Source of the DNA: an uncultured Planctomycetia bacterium
GTDB taxonomy: Bacteria; Omnitrophota; Gorgyraeia; Duberdicusellales; 4484-171
NCBI GenBank assembly: GCA_964629655.1
Contig: CAZVQU010000001.1
Location: 612,056 to 676,055, forward strand
Length of the DNA stretch: 64,000 bases
Direction: 5' to 3'
Made by a program: the position numbers and the translations under genes. The notes under the pieces were generated by a model. That model saw only the letters and a list, made by a program, of their open reading frames with translations. It was not told the DNA's origin and made no database searches. This document shows positions 33,084 through 43,182 of this stretch, one piece after another; positions within the stretch are counted from its first letter, which is position 1, and every line of letters begins with the position of its first letter.

Positions 33084-33482
33084 ATGAACCAGAAGGTAGA
33101 GGTAAAATTCTTAAGCAAAGATAAATTTGAAGTTAGAGCAGTATCTTCAGCAACTACAATCTATGTTGATAAAAAAGAGCCTGATAGTATTCCCTCCGGG
33201 CCAAATCCTTTAGAACTTTTTCTCTCATCGTTGGCTTCCTGCACTGGAGTTTTTGCTAAAAAGTACTTAGAACGCCACAATTTAGAGTTTAAAGAGTTAA
33301 GAGTAGAGGCCCAAGCAGAGTTTACCACGCAGGCTCCGATGAGATTAACTAAGATAAAGGCCAAGGTTCATACTGACGCCGATTTAGGAGATAAGAGAGA
33401 AGTTTTTCTAAGATTCATCGAGGGCTGCCCGATTCACAATACCGTTCTTTACACTAGCAAGATAGATATCGAATTAAGCTAG
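33084..33482 (+). CDS. OsmC/Ohr-family peroxiredoxin-like protein
   Basis: GPNPLELFLSSLASCTG motif with the catalytic Cys. The RBS is AGAGGAGGG. Confidence 0.8.
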   Translation: MNQKVEVKFLSKDKFEVRAVSSATTIYVDKKEPDSIPSGPNPLELFLSSLASCTGVFAKKYLERHNLEFKELRVEAQAEFTTQAPMRLTKIKAKVHTDADLGDKREVFLRFIEGCPIHNTVLYTSKIDIELS

Positions 33483-34331
33483 CAGAGTTGAGCCGTCACA
33501 ATTAGCAGTATTTAAACTATTAAATCCTTCCCGGCAGCTAGAGAATTTTAACTTCTCGCTAAGGGCGATTTCTCTTACCTTATTTATTAAATCTTTCCTT
33601 AAAGTTTGCGGCAGATAAGTATAGCCACCAATTTTTTCTCCTTGCTTAAGATAAAGCTTCTGCCATAATTCTTTATATTCGGGGAAAGCAACAACCATTC
33701 TTTTAAAGTTATCAGGCTTTACCTTATAAGTAGAGGCAATGACTTGTTTTGCTCCTGCTATTTTGATTTTTCTTATTGAGTCTTTAATTTCTTCGGTATT
33801 TAAGGGGTAAATTAAAGGATCAAGCCGAACAGCTACCGGTAGATATGAAGCGAGCTCCCTAACTGCTTTTAATCTTTCTTGAGGGGAGCAAGAGCGAGGT
33901 TCTAATTTTCTTGCTAATTCTTTATCTAGGGTAGTAAGGGAAATACTGGCTACTATTTTTTTAAAACTTTTTAATATATCTAAATCCCTTAAGATCAGAG
34001 AGGACTTTGTGACAATATTTATGCTCAGATCATGTTTTCCCATTATCTTTAAAGCAGCTCGAGTTAAGCCTAGCTCTTCCTCGAGGGGAAGATAAGGGTC
34101 AGAAGAGTTAGCCATGGCGATGAGAGAATCTTTAGGGATTTTATCGATTTCCTTCTCCAGCCTTTTTAAAAAGTCTTTTTTCTCGCGTGGTTGGTAAAAG
34201 TCTCTTATATATGATGAAGCATAGCAGTAGAGGCAATTGTGAGAACAACCAGTATAGGCTGATAAGCTATATTTAGCCGGGCAGGTACATAGATTGCCTT
34301 TCCAAGGGTCAAATCTGGTAATTAAGCTCAT
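33474..34331 (-). CDS. Radical SAM protein of the SPL / DNA-photolyase-like family
   Basis: GCSHNCLYC (CxxxCxxC) near the N-terminus and the family-typical length and composition. Convergent with osmC; the two overlap by 9 nt. Confidence 0.6.
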   Translation of the reverse strand: MSLITRFDPWKGNLCTCPAKYSLSAYTGCSHNCLYCYASSYIRDFYQPREKKDFLKRLEKEIDKIPKDSLIAMANSSDPYLPLEEELGLTRAALKIMGKHDLSINIVTKSSLILRDLDILKSFKKIVASISLTTLDKELARKLEPRSCSPQERLKAVRELASYLPVAVRLDPLIYPLNTEEIKDSIRKIKIAGAKQVIASTYKVKPDNFKRMVVAFPEYKELWQKLYLKQGEKIGGYTYLPQTLRKDLINKVREIALSEKLKFSSCREGFNSLNTANCDGSTLLA

Positions 34332-34868: not shown

Positions 34869-36485
34869 ATGAGTAGCAAATATTCTTTTAAATCTGTGAT
34901 TTTCGACCTCGACGGCGTGATTACCAAGACTGCCCTTGTTCATGCAGCAGCCTGGAAAGAGGCTTTTGATCAGTATTTACGCTTAAGAGAGTCAAGAGAC
35001 AAAGAGCCTTTCGCTGAGTTTACTCACCAAGATGACTATCTTCCCTATGTTGATGGAAAACCTCGCTACAAAGGGGTAAAGAGCTTTCTAGAGTCAAGAA
35101 ACATCAATATTCCTTATGGTGAGCCAACTGATTCTCCGGATGCCGAGACTATTTGCGGCATAGGGAATAATAAGAATGCAAAGTTTTGTCAGGTCTTAAA
35201 AGCTAAGGGAGTTGAGGTTTATCCTTCAACTATTGAATTAATCAAAGAATTAGAGGCTTCAGGGGTAAAAATAGGAGTAGCTTCTTCTTCAAAAAACTGC
35301 AAAGAGATTTTAGAAGTTGCTGAAATTGAAAATTTCTTCAAAACAAGAGTAGATGGTGTAGTCTCAGTACAACTGGGCCTTAAGGGAAAACCCGAAGGAG
35401 ATATCTTTACAACAGCAGCTTTTAATCTTGGAACTATACCAGCTGAGTCGATAGTTGTTGAAGACGCGTCTTCAGGGGTAGCAGCCGGGCGTAATGGCGG
35501 GTTTGGCTTAGTCATCGGTCTAGCTAGAGAGAAGAATCAGAAAGAATTACTCGAGAATGGAGCCGATTTAGTAGTTACTGACCTATCAGAGATAAACTTA
35601 GAGTTAATCGAGCAGTGGTTTCATAAGAAGCCGAGAGATTTACTCCAAAATTGGGACAAGCAGAGTGAGAGAATAGAGTCTTTAGAGGGCAAAGAGAAAG
35701 AAACCGGAGCAATTATTAACCCTTCTTATCTGGGTAGCGGAAAATCTTACCTCTTTAGCGGAAAAAAAATAGTTTTCTTCCTGGATTATGATGGAACTCT
35801 AACACCGATAGTTTCCCGTCCCGAGCTAGCAGTGATTTCTAGCCAGATGCAGGATATGATAAAGAAATTATCCCAAAAATATACTACTGCGATTGTAAGC
35901 GGGAGAATGAGAGAGGATGTTGAGAAGCTTGTCGGTATTCAAGGATTAATCTATGCCGGAAGCCACGGCTTTGATATCAAGGGTCCACAAGTTACGATGG
36001 TGCAGCCACAGGCTAAAGAAACTATACCGTTAGTTTCTAAGATAATTGAAAGGTTAAAAAAAGAATTATCTAATCTTGAGGGCTTGATAATAGAGGAGAA
36101 GAAATTTAGCGTAGCTGTGCATTATCGTCTGGTCGAGAGAGAAGAAATCCCGGCAATAAAGACTTTAGTTGGCGGGTTGATCCAAGAGAATAAGTCTTTA
36201 CGTTTGATGAAGGGGAAAAAAGTCTTTGAGATCCTTCCAGCTATAGATTGGAATAAAGGTAAGGCTGTAAAGTGGGTAATGAATGCCTTAGGGATTAACT
36301 GGGAAGATTTTTCTGTAATTTATATAGGAGATGACACAACCGACGAGGATGCTTTCAGAGTAGTTGCTACTCGCGGAATGAGTATTTTGGTTTCGGATAA
36401 ACCCAAAGCTTCGGCGGCTGATTTTGTGTTGTCTTCGCCAAAACAAGTAAAGGAATTATTTGAAAGAGTCCTCACAACTACTTAA
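34869..36485 (+). CDS. Fusion protein: beta-phosphoglucomutase (HAD) N-terminal domain plus trehalose-6-phosphate phosphatase (OtsB-like) C-terminal domain
   Basis: N-terminal domain: FDLDGVIT, KIGVASSSKN, VEDASSGVAAG (beta-PGM motifs I-III). C-terminal domain: FFLDYDGTLTPIV and GDDTTDEDAF (OtsB motifs). Confidence 0.8.
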   Translation: MSSKYSFKSVIFDLDGVITKTALVHAAAWKEAFDQYLRLRESRDKEPFAEFTHQDDYLPYVDGKPRYKGVKSFLESRNINIPYGEPTDSPDAETICGIGNNKNAKFCQVLKAKGVEVYPSTIELIKELEASGVKIGVASSSKNCKEILEVAEIENFFKTRVDGVVSVQLGLKGKPEGDIFTTAAFNLGTIPAESIVVEDASSGVAAGRNGGFGLVIGLAREKNQKELLENGADLVVTDLSEINLELIEQWFHKKPRDLLQNWDKQSERIESLEGKEKETGAIINPSYLGSGKSYLFSGKKIVFFLDYDGTLTPIVSRPELAVISSQMQDMIKKLSQKYTTAIVSGRMREDVEKLVGIQGLIYAGSHGFDIKGPQVTMVQPQAKETIPLVSKIIERLKKELSNLEGLIIEEKKFSVAVHYRLVEREEIPAIKTLVGGLIQENKSLRLMKGKKVFEILPAIDWNKGKAVKWVMNALGINWEDFSVIYIGDDTTDEDAFRVVATRGMSILVSDKPKASAADFVLSSPKQVKELFERVLTTT

Positions 36486-39015: not shown

Positions 39016-39666
39016 GTGGCTAAAGTGTCTAAAAAAATAGGTTGGGAGATAGCAAAGACAATTTCCTTTCCGATACTTCTTTTTCTGCTATTTTTAAGCG
39101 CTTATGCATTTTACAAACTAAGAGTAGCGTCTTATGTATCGGTCGAACTACAGGAAGATTTAAAAAAGTATCTTCTGACCATAGTGATTATTATAATAGG
39201 TTTTATTATCAAAAGGGTTATTGCCGGAGTCTCAACCTGGTATAAGGAGAATATTGCTTCTAAGACAGCTAGTAGTCTGGATGATCAGTTAATTCCTATC
39301 GCCAGACGACTATTAAAAGTTGCGGTTTGGATTGTCGTTCTTTTAATTATCCTGCCTCTTTACGGAATCGATATAAGTGCCTTAATTACTGCCTTAGGAG
39401 TAAGTTCTTTAGCGATTGCCTTGGCTGCCAAAGATACCATTGCCAATATTATTTCCGGGTTTATGATTATGATTGACAGGCCTTTTAGGATAGGTGATAG
39501 AGTTAAGATTCCTTCAGGAGAAGTGGTCGATGTTTTAGAAATCGGAGTAAGGCGTTCAAAGTTTTTATCCCAAGATAAAGCGATAGTAATTGTACCTAAT
39601 TTAGAGTTAAGCAAAAGCAAAATCATCAACTATACTTACGGAGAAGAGAGGAATGCCAAAGACTAA
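39016..39666 (+). CDS. Small-conductance mechanosensitive channel (MscS family); GTG start
   Basis: N-terminal TM helices, then the conserved MscS beta-domain (IISGFMIMIDRPFRIGDRVKI...GEVVDV). Confidence 0.7.
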   Translation: MAKVSKKIGWEIAKTISFPILLFLLFLSAYAFYKLRVASYVSVELQEDLKKYLLTIVIIIIGFIIKRVIAGVSTWYKENIASKTASSLDDQLIPIARRLLKVAVWIVVLLIILPLYGIDISALITALGVSSLAIALAAKDTIANIISGFMIMIDRPFRIGDRVKIPSGEVVDVLEIGVRRSKFLSQDKAIVIVPNLELSKSKIINYTYGEERNAKD

Positions 39667-41986
39667 AGATATCTATTCTAACTATATCAATGATGAGCTC
39701 TGGTTGATAAAGGAGACCGGGTGGGCAAAGGAGTCTCAGAGTGTGAAAGAGTCCCAGTTCTCTTTGGGTAATGGCTATTTAGGCACAAGAGGTATTTATG
39801 AGGAGATACCTTATGATTGCGCACCGGGAACTTATATCGCTGGGATTTATGACAAGATGGCTTCTCAGGTCTCTGAAATGGTCAATTTTCCCAATCCAAT
39901 TAACTTTAAGTTTGCTGTTGGGGGTGAGAAGCTTGGCTTAATCGCTATGGATACAATTGACCATAAGAGAATTCTTAATATGAAAAAGGCTGTGTTAGCA
40001 AGGCATACTATATATAAAGATAGCAAAAATAGATGCTATGATTACCAGTCAGCAAGATTCATTTCCCGACACGATAAAAATATAGGAGTTATGCAAATAG
40101 CATTAACCCCTTTAGATTCTGCCTGCGTATTGGATGTAAATACTGGTATCGATACTTCTGTTTCTAATGTTGGAGTTTTAACCGAGGGCCGGAAAAAGCA
40201 TTTTCGTATCAAGGAGCTAGGCCAGTATAAGGGGGCTGGTTTTCTTATTCAGGAAACCTTTGAGAAAAAATACACGGTAGTATATTGGGCCGGGTTTTAT
40301 TATCATATCAATAATAAAAAAGTATTGCCTAAGGATAATATATTTAGTCTTAAACTTAAGAAGAACCAGACAGTGGTGTTCACTAAGGTATTTTGTATAA
40401 AACATTACCCTTCCAAAGGCAGTCACGCAGCTCAAAAAAGAGATGCTTTTAATATATTCCACAAGTCTTTTAAGAGTGATTTTTCAACCCTTCTTAAAAA
40501 CCATATTGATGCCTGGGATAAACTATGGAAGAGGGCCGATGTTGTTATTGAGGGGACAGCTAATATTCAGCAGAATATGCGTTTCAATATATATCATATG
40601 CTCACCTGCCTTCATTGCGATAATGGGTTTTCAAGTATTGGTGCAAGAACCTTAAGTGGCGAAGGATATCGGGGACACATATTTTGGGATGCAGAGATTT
40701 TTCTCCTGCCGTTTTATCTCTTTACTTTTCCTAAAGCAGCAAAGAATATGCTTCTCTATCGCTACCAAAGGTTAGAAGAATCAAGAAAAATCGCTAAAGG
40801 GAATGGCTATAAAGGTGTGCAGTTTGCCTGGGAGTCAGCCGGTACCGGGGAAGAAGAGACTCCAACCTGGGCTATAGATATTGACCGGACAATTATCAAG
40901 ATACATACCCATAAGATGGAGCACCATTTAACTGCTGATATTGCTTATGCTATTAACAAGTATTATATAGCTACTGGTGATGATAAATTTATGCAAGATG
41001 CTGGATATGAAATGCTTATAGAGACAGCAAGATTCTGGGCTTCACGGGTTAAGTATAATAAGAAGAAGGATAAGTATGAGATCAAACAGGTTATTGGCCC
41101 GGATGAGTTTCACGTTGCCGTAGATAATAATGCTTTTACCAATATGATGGCTAAGTGGAATTTATTATTGGTAGTTAAGATGCTGGAGAGGCTAAAGAAA
41201 AAAGCTAAAGTTTACAATAAGATAAGTAAAAAATTAGATTTAAAAGATAAGGAAATAAAGTCCTGGAAGAGAATCGCTTCCAAGATAATTACTCGGATGA
41301 ATAAGAAGAATATCATTGAACAGTCTGATGGTTTTTTTAAATTAAAAAAAGTCGCTCTTAATAGAACCGATGAGAACGGTATTCCGCTTATACCTTCAAA
41401 GATAAGAGCAAAGGATTTAGGCAAGACTCAGATAGTAAAGCAGGCCGATGTTTTAATGCTTATTTATCTACTTGGTGATATATTCAGTGCAAAGACAAAA
41501 CTTGCTAACTATGATTTTTATATCTCTCGTACAGTACATAAGTCTTCTCTAAGTGCTCCGATGCATGCTTTCATTGCTTCTGAGGTTGGAGATTTACAGA
41601 GGGCCTATAGTCTTTTTAATGTTGCTATGCGCACAGATATAAGTAATCTTTACGGAAATACTGCCGAGGGAGTCCATGCTGCATCTTTGGGAGGTACCTG
41701 GCAGGCTCTGGTTTTTGGTTTTGGTGGGGTTGTTATTAGGAATAGTGAATTATTTATAAATCCTCGCATGCCCCGTTCTTGGCGTAAGCTTAAGTTTTCT
41801 TTAAGTTGGCGAGACAGCTTAATCAAATTGCAAGTAACTAACGATATCATAAAGATAAAAGTATCTTGCTCTAAGCACAAAAAGACAAAAATAGGCATAT
41901 TTGATAAGTTGAGGATTATCAAAACCAACAAAATTCATACTTTCAAAAGGCATATTCATGGAGCGGTGAAGGAGGCGTATTACTAA
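39653..41986 (+). CDS. Second GH65-family disaccharide phosphorylase
   Basis: LGNGYLGTRG, YRGHIFWDAE and QVIGPDEFH motifs. About 30% identical by eye to the upstream GH65. Confidence 0.8.
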   Translation: MPKTKDIYSNYINDELWLIKETGWAKESQSVKESQFSLGNGYLGTRGIYEEIPYDCAPGTYIAGIYDKMASQVSEMVNFPNPINFKFAVGGEKLGLIAMDTIDHKRILNMKKAVLARHTIYKDSKNRCYDYQSARFISRHDKNIGVMQIALTPLDSACVLDVNTGIDTSVSNVGVLTEGRKKHFRIKELGQYKGAGFLIQETFEKKYTVVYWAGFYYHINNKKVLPKDNIFSLKLKKNQTVVFTKVFCIKHYPSKGSHAAQKRDAFNIFHKSFKSDFSTLLKNHIDAWDKLWKRADVVIEGTANIQQNMRFNIYHMLTCLHCDNGFSSIGARTLSGEGYRGHIFWDAEIFLLPFYLFTFPKAAKNMLLYRYQRLEESRKIAKGNGYKGVQFAWESAGTGEEETPTWAIDIDRTIIKIHTHKMEHHLTADIAYAINKYYIATGDDKFMQDAGYEMLIETARFWASRVKYNKKKDKYEIKQVIGPDEFHVAVDNNAFTNMMAKWNLLLVVKMLERLKKKAKVYNKISKKLDLKDKEIKSWKRIASKIITRMNKKNIIEQSDGFFKLKKVALNRTDENGIPLIPSKIRAKDLGKTQIVKQADVLMLIYLLGDIFSAKTKLANYDFYISRTVHKSSLSAPMHAFIASEVGDLQRAYSLFNVAMRTDISNLYGNTAEGVHAASLGGTWQALVFGFGGVVIRNSELFINPRMPRSWRKLKFSLSWRDSLIKLQVTNDIIKIKVSCSKHKKTKIGIFDKLRIIKTNKIHTFKRHIHGAVKEAYY

Positions 41987-43182
41987 TGGGGACAAATAGT
42001 CTCAGTATCGCTCATTTTCACTGGGGATTCCCTCCGATAATTGGTGGAGTAGAGACTCATCTTACTATACTCTTACCCCAACTAGTGAAGTTAGGCCATA
42101 AGGTCAGCTTACTTACTGGTTCAATAGAAGGCTCTAAAGCGAGGTCTAAATATGAGGGGGCCCAGATTTACCGGACTCCGATTATGGATTTAAACTGGCT
42201 CTACAAACGGGGCTTAAGTGGTTTGGAAGAAGAGATCAAGAAAACTTTTGCTTCTTTTCTAGAGGATAGCCGTCCTGACATTGTTCATGTTCACAATATG
42301 CATTATTTTAGTCAAATTCATGTCAAGACCTTGGAGGGCCTGAGCAAGAAAAGAGGAATTCCCTTTGTTCTTACTGCCCATAATGTTTGGGATGACATCC
42401 TTTTTCTGGAGCTGACCCATAGGATAGATTGGTCCCAGATTATTGCTGTAAGCCACTTTATAAAAAAGGAAATTATCGGTATCGGCATAGATGATAAGAA
42501 GATTACTGTTGTTCACCATGGGGTAGATCAGGATAGGTTTACTCCCGGAGTAGATACAAAAGCAATATTAGCTAAGTATCCGCAACTTAAGGGTAAGAAA
42601 GTAATATTCCATCCGGCCCGGATTGGTTTAGCTAAAGGTTGTGATTTTAGCATTAAAGCTATGAACATAGTGAGACAGAAGAATCCTGATGCTTTGTTGG
42701 TTCTGGCCGGATCGAAAAACATTATTGATTGGGGAGGCAGCCAACAGAAAGACATTGCTTATTTGGTAGATTTGATAAAACACTTTGATATGGATGATAG
42801 TGTTTTGATAGATATGTATACCCTAGATGAGGTAAAGGAACTATATGAGGTAAGCGATATTTGTCTCTACCCTTCTTCTGCGCCTGAACCTTTCGGGTTA
42901 ACTATGCTTGAGGCTATGTCTATGGCTAAGCCGATGATCGTTACCAATATGGGGGGAATGCCCGAAATTATTAAGCATGGGATTAACGGCTTTGTTGTCC
43001 CGGTTAGGGATTTTGAGGCTATGGCAGGAAAGGTATGCCAATTGTTAGAGGATACAAAATTAAAAGAAAGGTTTGGCTATACCGGAAGACAAATGGTTGA
43101 GTCACAGTATACTAAAGAAAAAGTGACCGAGGAGACCCTGGGGGTTTATAAAAAAGTGATGAGTAGCAAAATAAGGAGTTAG
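41986..43182 (+). CDS. GT4-family (GT-B) glycosyltransferase
   Basis: N-terminal GGVETH, and a C-terminal EPFGLTMLEAMSMAKPMIVTNMGG...E motif (the GT4 E-x7-E region). The start overlaps the upstream stop. Confidence 0.75.
   Translation: MGTNSLSIAHFHWGFPPIIGGVETHLTILLPQLVKLGHKVSLLTGSIEGSKARSKYEGAQIYRTPIMDLNWLYKRGLSGLEEEIKKTFASFLEDSRPDIVHVHNMHYFSQIHVKTLEGLSKKRGIPFVLTAHNVWDDILFLELTHRIDWSQIIAVSHFIKKEIIGIGIDDKKITVVHHGVDQDRFTPGVDTKAILAKYPQLKGKKVIFHPARIGLAKGCDFSIKAMNIVRQKNPDALLVLAGSKNIIDWGGSQQKDIAYLVDLIKHFDMDDSVLIDMYTLDEVKELYEVSDICLYPSSAPEPFGLTMLEAMSMAKPMIVTNMGGMPEIIKHGINGFVVPVRDFEAMAGKVCQLLEDTKLKERFGYTGRQMVESQYTKEKVTEETLGVYKKVMSSKIRS

Follow-up and report, generated by a model that had tools for sequence, protein, structure and literature searches.

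A fused β-phosphoglucomutase-like and trehalose-6-phosphate phosphatase protein encoded next to a GH65 phosphorylase: a candidate module for nucleotide-sugar-free trehalose synthesis

Among stress protectants trehalose is a major one, and in mycobacteria it is also a cell-wall precursor; the routes leading to it are both drug and engineering targets. Here we describe a locus from an uncultured bacterium of the Omnitrophota lineage (GenBank assembly GCA_964629655.1, contig CAZVQU010000001.1, positions 612,056 to 676,055; this 64-kb stretch, analysed as a whole, is referred to below as the window). On this locus one gene encodes, in a single polypeptide, an N-terminal HAD-IA domain resembling β-phosphoglucomutase (β-PGM) and a C-terminal trehalose-6-phosphate phosphatase (T6PP) domain, and its end overlaps the start of a gene for a glycoside hydrolase family 65 (GH65) protein with the signature of trehalose 6-phosphate (Tre6P) phosphorylases (TrePP). 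Sequence comparisons lead us to propose that the fusion protein and its GH65 partner may form a three-activity module making trehalose from glucose phosphates without nucleotide sugars, a proposal on which we hold the balance to be even. The wider claim, that such modules would constitute a natural nucleotide-sugar-free trehalose route, spread over more than 15 phyla, carried also on plasmids and representing the function of the OtsB1-type triple fusions of Mycobacteriales, lies in our judgement slightly on the doubtful side of even. What is new here is the gene context and the module function that we infer from it, the sequence itself belonging to a known and annotated family.

Results

The fusion gene and its domain architecture

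The open reading frame (ORF) of the fusion gene begins with an ATG and encodes 538 aa, uninterrupted by stops in the ORF list (the coordinates of this and all other features are collected in Table 1). An earlier note on this DNA had described the product as a single-polypeptide fusion of β-PGM and T6PP, a description borne out by the unbroken frame, by an identical public protein and by the architecture of the homologues; all five motifs quoted in that note were located in the protein. Pfam places HAD_2/Hydrolase matches at aa 8-211 and Trehalose_PPase (PF02358) at aa 304-523, and the domain assignments lie far above chance level. An AlphaFold2 model, computed from an alignment of 24 diverse relatives of the fusion protein, was confident over both domains, with a mean predicted local distance difference test (pLDDT) of 90.1 and a predicted template modelling score of 0.79. 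The two domains extend over aa ~1-254 and ~299-538.

The inter-domain linker, for which about 60 aa had been proposed, turned out to be shorter: we put it at ~45 aa, because the pLDDT falls, to 63-82, only across aa ~261-300, remaining around 90 elsewhere. No other part of the family is as poorly conserved or as variable in length as the linker, which corresponds to the gap-rich columns 290-345 of alignment A1.

The possibility that two genes were artificially joined by a frameshift, a sequencing error or an assembly error was considered and rejected, and we rate its probability as negligible. The frame is continuous, the model is confident, and a protein 100 % identical to the fusion protein is recorded on 6 contigs, the longest of 762 kb. 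In addition, 2,232 of 1.84 billion cluster representatives (50 % identity) matched at E < 1e-30; among the best 150 of them, more than 100 are divergent full-length proteins of 490-560 aa with 32-61 % identity to the fusion protein; RefSeq holds the same architecture in cultured isolates.

The C-terminal domain belongs to the OtsB family

The C-terminal domain passes the curated T6PP equivalog model TIGR00685 with 183.3 bits against a cut-off of 68.05, and scores 178.5 bits against PF02358 (cut-off 27). Its match in the PDB is the catalytic domain of Mycobacterium tuberculosis OtsB2 (E 1e-44, 156 bits). The HAD motifs I (DxDGT) and IV (GDDxTDE) are both present, and contribute residues D306, D308, D488, D489 and D492, each either invariant or at least 90 % conserved in the 24 relatives; D306, D308, D489, T491 and D492 are invariant in this set. 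Moreover, Foldseek compared the model of the fusion protein with the T6PP structures 5gvx, 1u02, 5dxl, 6qj6 and 6upb with a probability of 1.00. In conclusion, the C-terminal domain is an OtsB-family phosphatase, as already proposed in the earlier note, and is predicted to hydrolyse Tre6P.

The N-terminal domain retains a mutase-type active site

The best PDB match of the N-terminal half is M. tuberculosis Rv3400 (8h5s; E 1e-54, 189-191 bits over aa 8-242), to which the domain is 43-45 % identical over the full Rv3400 length. The β-PGMs of Lactococcus lactis and Bacillus subtilis gave 72-86 bits (~78 for L. lactis). A cap insertion of ~30 aa is common to the N-terminal domain and Rv3400 and is missing from L. 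lactis β-PGM.

Mapping of the L. lactis active site onto the domain showed that residues D8, D10, T16, H20, G46, R49 and K76 correspond to D13, D15, T21, H25, G63, R66 and K102, and S114, S116, K117, N118, K145, E169 and D170 to S139, S141, K142, N143, K174, E198 and D199. The kept residues thus include the nucleophile and the acid/base (D13, D15), the hinge T21, the His-Lys pair (H25, K102), the distal-phosphate site (R66, S139, S141, K142, N143) and the Mg ligands E198 and D199. Six of them (D13, D15, H25, K102, K174, E198) are at least 90 % conserved in the 24 diverse family members. The active-site residues persist in nearly all relatives checked, including the triple fusions and the fusions to OtsA, adenylate kinase or GH65 described below, and are degenerate in a few divergent members (P0234, P0255, P0268, L047).

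Three observations count against a mutase. The domain scores 102.8 bits with the curated β-PGM equivalog TIGR01990 (EC 5.4.2.6), under its cut-off of 189.4, and 145.1 bits with the subfamily model TIGR02009, narrowly under 153.35, a shortfall that coincides with the cap insertion of ~30 aa. One L. lactis residue, K45, is unmatched, being aligned with D62. Finally, the HAD-IA relatives grouped in the TIGR02009 (PGMB-YQAB) subfamily include plain phosphatases. Since both curated cut-offs are missed, we infer β-PGM identity, and with it mutase activity, from the residues. The β-PGM assignment of the earlier note therefore stands as regards the catalytic residues, nearly all of which are kept, and does not stand as regards the curated equivalog and subfamily models.

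An alternative reading is that the N-terminal domain dephosphorylates sugar phosphates, or that its role lies mainly in structure or oligomerisation, like that of its counterpart in mycobacterial OtsB2. The protein would then be a long OtsB, and its linkage with GH65 would reflect trehalose/Tre6P metabolism in general. The low model scores, the missing K45 equivalent and the degenerate sites of the four divergent members agree with this view, as do two related proteins: OtsB2 has S-A in place of the Mg ligands E-D, and Rv3400 has Ala at the position of K117. We nevertheless regard this explanation as improbable. Across more than 15 phyla, and in almost every fusion architecture checked, the full mutase-type site is kept, and a purely structural domain is unlikely because it would not keep active-site residues. 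In addition, a distal phosphate site is what a mutase using a bisphosphate needs, and a HAD-IA + GH65 protein devoid of a T6PP domain (P0263, 1057 aa, HAD active-site residues intact) shows the pairing expected of a β-PGM with a phosphorylase releasing β-glucose 1-phosphate (β-G1P).

As to Rv3400 itself, 8h5s is deposited as β-phosphoglucomutase and was identified as Rv3400 by Foldseek; we found no paper on this structure. At the distal-phosphate Lys the three proteins read SSSAN (Rv3400), SASKN (L. lactis) and SSSKN (fusion protein).

The overlapping gene encodes a GH65 protein with a Tre6P phosphorylase signature

The GH65 gene lies in a different frame from the fusion gene and starts at a TTG preceded by AAGGA; no alternative canonical start precedes its conserved W19. 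The resulting overlap of 26 nt suggests that the two genes may be translationally coupled. In the PDB, the protein matched 9lb6 best (491 bits), followed by the kojibiose phosphorylase CsKP (3wiq, 402 bits).

Specificity in GH65 has been related to six positions, 64, 392, 394, 402, 416 and 585 in CsKP numbering, which read DQGQDE in Tre6P phosphorylase, TRIGPP in trehalose phosphorylase (TP), EEAPxx in kojibiose phosphorylase (KP) and KV[MF]NES in maltose phosphorylase (MP); the DQGQDE enzyme of Caldithrix abyssi formed Tre6P out of β-G1P and glucose 6-phosphate (G6P) (De Beul 2021, PMC8537180). Characterised Tre6P phosphorylases are on record from Ca. Kuenenia (CAJ75349.1) and C. abyssi (APF18594.1). 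In a HMMER alignment with CsKP, the partner GH65 reads D, Q, G, Q, D and E at these positions. In a MAFFT alignment of 53 sequences it reads D, Q, G, Q, W and E, position 416 being W, and when MAFFT aligns three sequences, position 585 moves as well as position 416. Therefore D64, Q392, G394, Q402 and E585 match DQGQDE in both main alignments: five specificity positions are robust, and the loop positions are alignment-dependent. None of the TP, KP, MP and oligoNP motifs is compatible with these residues, and the WET, WRA and MVI motifs are absent.

Loop lengths were judged by the criteria of Table 3 of the GH65 review (long loop 3, long loop 7, short loop 11). Loop 3 shows no net gap against its long counterpart in CsKP, loop 7 is four residues longer than that of CsKP, and loop 11 resembles the short one of CsKP, a pattern suiting Tre6P phosphorylase or KP alike, and not TP.

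The GH65 phosphate site (K/R330, Y337, S631-S/T632, H675) reads R, Y, S-T and H in the partner protein, and the catalytic acid E483 and the −1 subsite residues W343, D344, K596 and Q597 are present. Because the phosphate-binding residues are intact, we take the protein to be a phosphorylase and not a hydrolase. Taken together, the partner GH65 carries a Tre6P phosphorylase signature, robust at five of the six positions, from which β-G1P and G6P would be its probable substrate and acceptor in the direction of synthesis. The same motif is found in 35 of the 51 partner GH65s of the other loci analysed below, and the remaining 16 differ at one to three of the six positions; those of Mycobacteriales have S at position 64.

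Three other assignments were examined and set aside. A trehalose phosphorylase (TreP) would carry TRIGPP/WRA and short loops, which are absent; a kojibiose phosphorylase would carry WET and EEAP, which are equally absent; a hydrolase, as the deposited name of 9lb6 would have it, is disfavoured by the intact phosphate site. The structure itself (9lb6 / 9lb7) shares the DQGQDE positions, and of its phosphate site the Ser-Thr pair was the part read from the alignment. We found no paper on 9lb6.

The fusion gene and GH65 are linked across loci

Linkage was assessed by tblastn using the N-terminal domain, the C-terminal domain and the GH65 of the window, plus a GT20 domain, on 80 species-representative loci with flanks of up to 10 kb. 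A full fusion occurs at 55 of these 80 loci, one of which is cut by a contig end. Among the 54 that can be evaluated, 51 have a GH65 partner, fused in frame in 12 cases and immediately downstream on the same strand in 39, so that the split form is commoner than the fused one; at one further locus GH65 lies upstream on the opposite strand, and two are without it. At the 18 loci where T6PP occurs alone, an adjacent GH65 was seen in 2 and GT20/OtsA in 9. The contrast between the two groups is significant for GH65 (51 of 54 against 2 of 17, Fisher p = 1.1e-10) as well as for GT20 (p = 0.004). In the window the three domains stand in the same order and are co-directional, GH65 being split off from the polypeptide.

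The earlier note had placed the two HAD phosphotransferases before and after a GH65 step. This arrangement is coherent with the data, given the Tre6P phosphorylase signature of the adjacent GH65 and its linkage in 51 of 54 loci.

Two large plasmids of cultured isolates carry the fusion and GH65 genes as an isolated two-gene cassette, namely a conjugative plasmid of Indioceanicola profundi (L081, NZ_CP030129.1, 6911-11004; fusion WP_318658559.1, GH65 WP_119681809.1) and a plasmid of Legionella lytica (L082, NZ_CP071528.1, 6995-10910; fusion WP_252582657.1, GH65 WP_252582656.1). The genes overlap by 4 nt or lie 1 nt apart, and there is no OtsA nearby. This arrangement suggests a horizontally mobile unit that may be self-sufficient.

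Spread of the family and fusion variants

The earlier note had advised looking for the same fusion in other genomes, and thousands of homologues were found. The best 120 are nearly all two-domain proteins, and the named ones are 'trehalose-phosphatase' from Candidatus Omnitrophota, which makes an Omnitrophota origin of the window most likely. The fusion extends over more than 15 phyla. Among species-representative genomes it is present in Omnitrophota, Elusimicrobia, Alpha-, Gamma- and Deltaproteobacteria, Latescibacterota, Binatia, Synergistota, Bacteroidota, Nitrospirota, Cyanobacteria, Planctomycetota, Gemmatimonadota, Actinomycetota and Chlamydiales, and in some archaeal-labelled metagenome-assembled genomes (MAGs). 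RefSeq labels it 'otsB' in the cultured I. profundi, Croceicoccus marinus and L. lytica. As a sequence, the fusion is thus neither rare nor new, and forms a large family already annotated as otsB or trehalose-phosphatase.

Triple fusions of ~1,300-1,340 aa combine HAD-IA, Trehalose_PPase and GH65; one of them, Nocardia transvalensis WP_040754421.1, is named 'trehalose-phosphatase / alpha,alpha-trehalase'. Such in-frame fusions were found at loci of Mycolicibacterium, Mycobacterium, Nocardia and Antrihabitans. A protein from Polyangiaceae (P0245, MBN2193295.1, 1070 aa) has another T6PP family (T6PP_N + T6PP_C, PF18572/PF21141) fused to HAD-IA and GH65, and seems to have combined the same three predicted activities independently. 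Together with the HAD-IA/GH65 fusions, it provides independent Rosetta-stone support for the module.

Another variant combines HAD-IA and T6PP with adenylate kinase (P0175, 700 aa, HAD active-site residues intact). The protein ranking first among the representative matches (P0025, 871 aa) has no T6PP domain and consists of three β-PGM-like HAD-IA domains in tandem, with a weak match to DUF6280. Two archaeal-labelled MAGs, one 'Pacearchaeota' (L005, whose fusion is 55 % identical to the window protein) and one from Methanomicrobia (L049), carry the full bacterial-type module of fusion and GH65, which would reflect either horizontal transfer or a binning error.

Neighbouring genes in the window

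Downstream of the partner GH65 gene lie genes for an MscS-type channel, a second GH65 and a GT4 glycosyltransferase, followed by a PEPCK gene. The second GH65, of KP type, is 33 % identical to the partner. Neither a GT20 gene nor a second β-PGM gene occurs within the 64-kb window. The fused N-terminal domain would be the sole β-PGM for both GH65s of the window, and therefore β-G1P released by the KP-type enzyme could feed Tre6P synthesis; the second GH65 is in this respect a possible alternative β-G1P source. Another Omnitrophota locus (L002, 1076-10157) shares the set of MscS, KP-type GH65 and GT4 in a different order: MscS, stand-alone β-PGM, KP-type GH65, GT4, fusion and TrePP-type GH65.

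Upstream, an OsmC-like gene and a divergent radical-SAM gene are preceded by FeoB and a FeoA/iron-repressor gene. The MscS channel and the OsmC-like protein fit, circumstantially, a role in compatible solutes or osmotic adaptation. An MscS-like gene also stands directly upstream of OtsA-OtsB in two archaeal MAGs, of Methanocellales (L056, 3598-6720) and Hadesarchaea (L057, 439-3500), echoing the association of MscS with trehalose genes in the window. A scan of the region for promoters and terminators, which returned the promoter-like site of Table 1, gave site counts not above shuffled expectation.

With a G+C content of ~39 %, the window shows a positive GC skew in each 2-kb bin (cumulative 5.2), and from 23.5 to 48 kb nearly every large ORF is on the plus strand; skew and strand bias fit a leading-strand stretch of one replichore.

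Table 1. Features of the window, with coordinates, strand and supporting evidence (aa numbers refer to the fusion protein).
Feature	Coordinates	Strand	Evidence
OsmC-like protein	33084..33482	+	upstream neighbour of fusion gene
Radical-SAM protein, weak DUF1848 match	33474..34331	-	upstream neighbour, divergent
Promoter-like site TTTATA-16-TATAAT, ~95 nt before start codon	34746..34773	+	consensus scan, 10/12 matches
Two-domain fusion gene	34869..36485, stop included	+	ORF list, Pfam, NCBIfam, identical public protein P0001
N-terminal HAD-IA β-PGM-like domain, aa 1-254	34869..35630	+	PDB matches, residue mapping
Motif FDLDGVIT, aa 12-19	34902..34925	+
Motif KIGVASSSKN, aa 134-143	35268..35297	+
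Motif VEDASSGVAAG, aa 197-207	35457..35489	+
Inter-domain linker, aa ~255-298 (~45 aa)	35631..35762	+	AlphaFold2 pLDDT dip, gap-rich alignment columns
C-terminal HAD-IIB T6PP (OtsB family) domain, aa 299-538	35763..36482	+	TIGR00685, PDB match, invariant Asp
Motif FLDYDGTLTPIV, aa 304-315	35778..35813	+
Motif GDDTTDEDAF, aa 487-496	36327..36356	+
Stop codon of fusion ORF	36483..36485	+
Gene overlap, 26 nt, fusion end / GH65 start	36460..36485	+	read from sequence
GH65 phosphorylase, Tre6P phosphorylase type, 817 aa	36460..38913	+	Pfam GH65 N, m, C; best PDB 9lb6
MscS-type mechanosensitive channel, 216 aa	39016..39666	+	Pfam MS_channel_1st, MS_channel_2nd; NCBIfam MscS all under cut-off
Second GH65, kojibiose-phosphorylase type	39653..41986	+	593 bits to CsKP 3wiq; EEAP and WET motifs
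GT4 glycosyltransferase	41986..43182	+	Pfam Glycos_transf_1, Glyco_transf_4; no NCBIfam cut-off reached

Discussion

A proposed route from glucose phosphates to trehalose

The reading that we find most coherent is a pathway of three steps. First, the N-terminal domain would interconvert G6P and β-G1P. Second, the GH65 enzyme, operating in its thermodynamically favoured synthetic direction, would combine β-G1P and G6P into Tre6P and phosphate (Pi). Third, the C-terminal domain would hydrolyse Tre6P irreversibly to trehalose and Pi, pulling the flux forward, so that the net reaction would be 2 G6P → trehalose + 2 Pi. The fusion of the first and last enzymes and the gene overlap with GH65 would provide fixed stoichiometry and co-expression, and in other lineages the three activities would reside on one polypeptide.

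The proposed direction of flux and the proposed product follow from the phosphatase: because its step is irreversible, trehalose would be the only end product reached through all three activities one after the other. For catabolism a phosphatase would be counter-productive, and the window offers no local source of Tre6P. As to the substrate channelling suggested by the earlier note, the two halves of the fusion protein would carry out steps 1 and 3, with the GH65 step between them, and any channelling would need GH65 in the complex.

There are precedents for the chemistry. Tre6P formation by TrePP is reported to be nearly irreversible, with a Keq of ~760 (PMC13121652), and a one-pot combination of MP, β-PGM and TrePP yields Tre6P (Taguchi 2020; PMC11442529). 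Going by its listing in PMC6942593, an earlier work put trePP, pgmB and otsB together into L. lactis (Carvalho 2011). By analogy with these systems, the chemistry of the route appears feasible. The engineered L. lactis strain reportedly accumulated trehalose.

Evidence to be set against a synthetic role

Several facts weigh against the proposed route, in addition to the profile scores of the N-terminal domain. The equilibrium of β-PGM lies toward G6P, so that β-G1P would be scarce. The linkage estimate draws on the top-scoring 80 of at least 589 loci and is therefore biased to relatives of the query. The depositors of 9lb6, the closest solved GH65, named it 'trehalose-6-phosphate hydrolase'. 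We found no enzymology of any member of the fusion family, and deletion of otsB1 in M. tuberculosis gave no obvious phenotype, OtsB2 still being essential (PMC11046441). A 2025 review presents TrePP solely as a Tre6P-degrading route (PMC12125463).

Part of the evidence is best discussed in connection with a different explanation, in which the module would act as a valve on Tre6P made by OtsA: the C-terminal domain would free trehalose, and GH65 and the β-PGM domain would phosphorolyse the excess Tre6P to two G6P, keeping Tre6P from building up. In this scheme the β-PGM domain would follow the GH65 step, and GH65 flux would be catabolic. A catabolic precedent exists, since the natural TrePP and β-PGM pair of L. 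lactis, to our knowledge the only such pair with a characterised physiology, is catabolic (PMC12125463), and according to a 2024 review GH65 members typically function in breakdown in vivo. Furthermore, OtsA lies within 6 kb at 8 of the 55 fusion loci, among them Bacteroidales operons with the order fusion-GH65-OtsA-OtsB, and one protein (P0165, 990 aa) fuses OtsA (GT20) to HAD-IA and T6PP with the HAD active-site residues intact. Because of these loci and of this fusion, the two-domain phosphatase can, on sequence grounds, also serve the classical OtsA pathway.

As a general explanation we nonetheless consider the valve unlikely. Working with OtsA, it would amount to a futile cycle wasting NDP-glucose; there is no OtsA near 47 of the 55 loci, in the window or beside the plasmid cassettes; and the TrePP equilibrium lies toward Tre6P synthesis. 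Moreover, a phosphatase and a mutase would compete over the fate of one metabolite, and their fusion would bring no obvious gain.

Should synthesis of trehalose by the module be confirmed, an additional route would stand beside OtsAB, TreYZ, TreS, TreT and TreP, offering a cheap bypass of OtsA in many uncultured bacteria and possibly, through OtsB1, in dormant M. tuberculosis. The current labels 'otsB' and 'GH65' would then mask the route, and OtsB1, uncharacterised for more than 20 years, would gain a concrete function. Should the hypothesis fail, the locus would be an unremarkable representative of a large family that is already annotated. The open-access literature gave no description of a natural module of fusion and GH65, which is weak evidence of absence.

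Comparison with known systems

The closest counterparts of the window module are the triple fusions of Mycobacteriales, which have the same domains in the same order, the GH65 signature S/D-Q-G-Q..E and both HAD sites kept; they differ in that the window GH65 is a separate gene with a 26-nt overlap. The comparison was made with relatives of M. tuberculosis OtsB1 (Rv2006), from Nocardia, Mycolicibacterium and Mycobacterium MAGs, and not with the Rv2006 sequence itself, which is probably a HAD-IA + T6PP + GH65 triple fusion. OtsB1 has 1,327 aa and a function given as unknown (PMC11046441), and is described as DosR-regulated and biochemically uncharacterised (bioRxiv 2024.11.12.623260).

OtsB2 (Rv3372; 5gvx) is the only solved structure that Foldseek aligns over both domains of the fusion protein (425 columns, 31 % identity). 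Its N-terminal domain is truncated, aa 87-160 aligning with aa 178-251 of the fusion protein (34.5 bits), and lacks the Mg-binding pair, whereas the site of the fusion protein is intact. This match over two stretches, with its S-A substitution, and the two-domain structural alignment suggest that the N-terminal domain of OtsB2 is the degenerate remnant of a β-PGM-T6PP fusion in an ancestor. The two proteins also differ in their partners, OtsB2 working with OtsA (PMC11046441) and the fusion protein having GH65 as genomic partner.

Rv3400, unlike the fusion protein, stands alone, unfused to a phosphatase, and has Ala where the latter has K142. Its gene presumably adjoins the GH65 gene Rv3401. 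In the open-access literature on Rv3400/Rv3401 and on OtsB1 with GH65 we found no description of a natural module.

The TrePP (EC 2.4.1.216) and PgmB of L. lactis represent the same two enzyme families, converting Tre6P and Pi to β-G1P and G6P, and β-G1P to G6P. That pair is fed by the trehalose PTS and has no Tre6P phosphatase, whereas the fusion protein has one, and a phosphatase fused to the mutase would only make sense if Tre6P were a precursor of trehalose.

With the canonical OtsA-OtsB pathway the proposed module would share the last step and the phosphatase family; Tre6P, however, would be made from β-G1P by an inverting GH65 enzyme and not from UDP- or ADP-glucose by a GT20 enzyme. Finally, TrePP has been used synthetically in man-made systems, engineered or in vitro (Carvalho 2011; Taguchi 2020; the MP, TrePP and PPGK pathway of 2026), the last of which is termed a 'new-to-nature' coenzyme-free pathway by its authors (PMC13121652). 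If our reading is correct, the window module would be a natural and widespread counterpart to these designs for Tre6P synthesis, ending in free trehalose.

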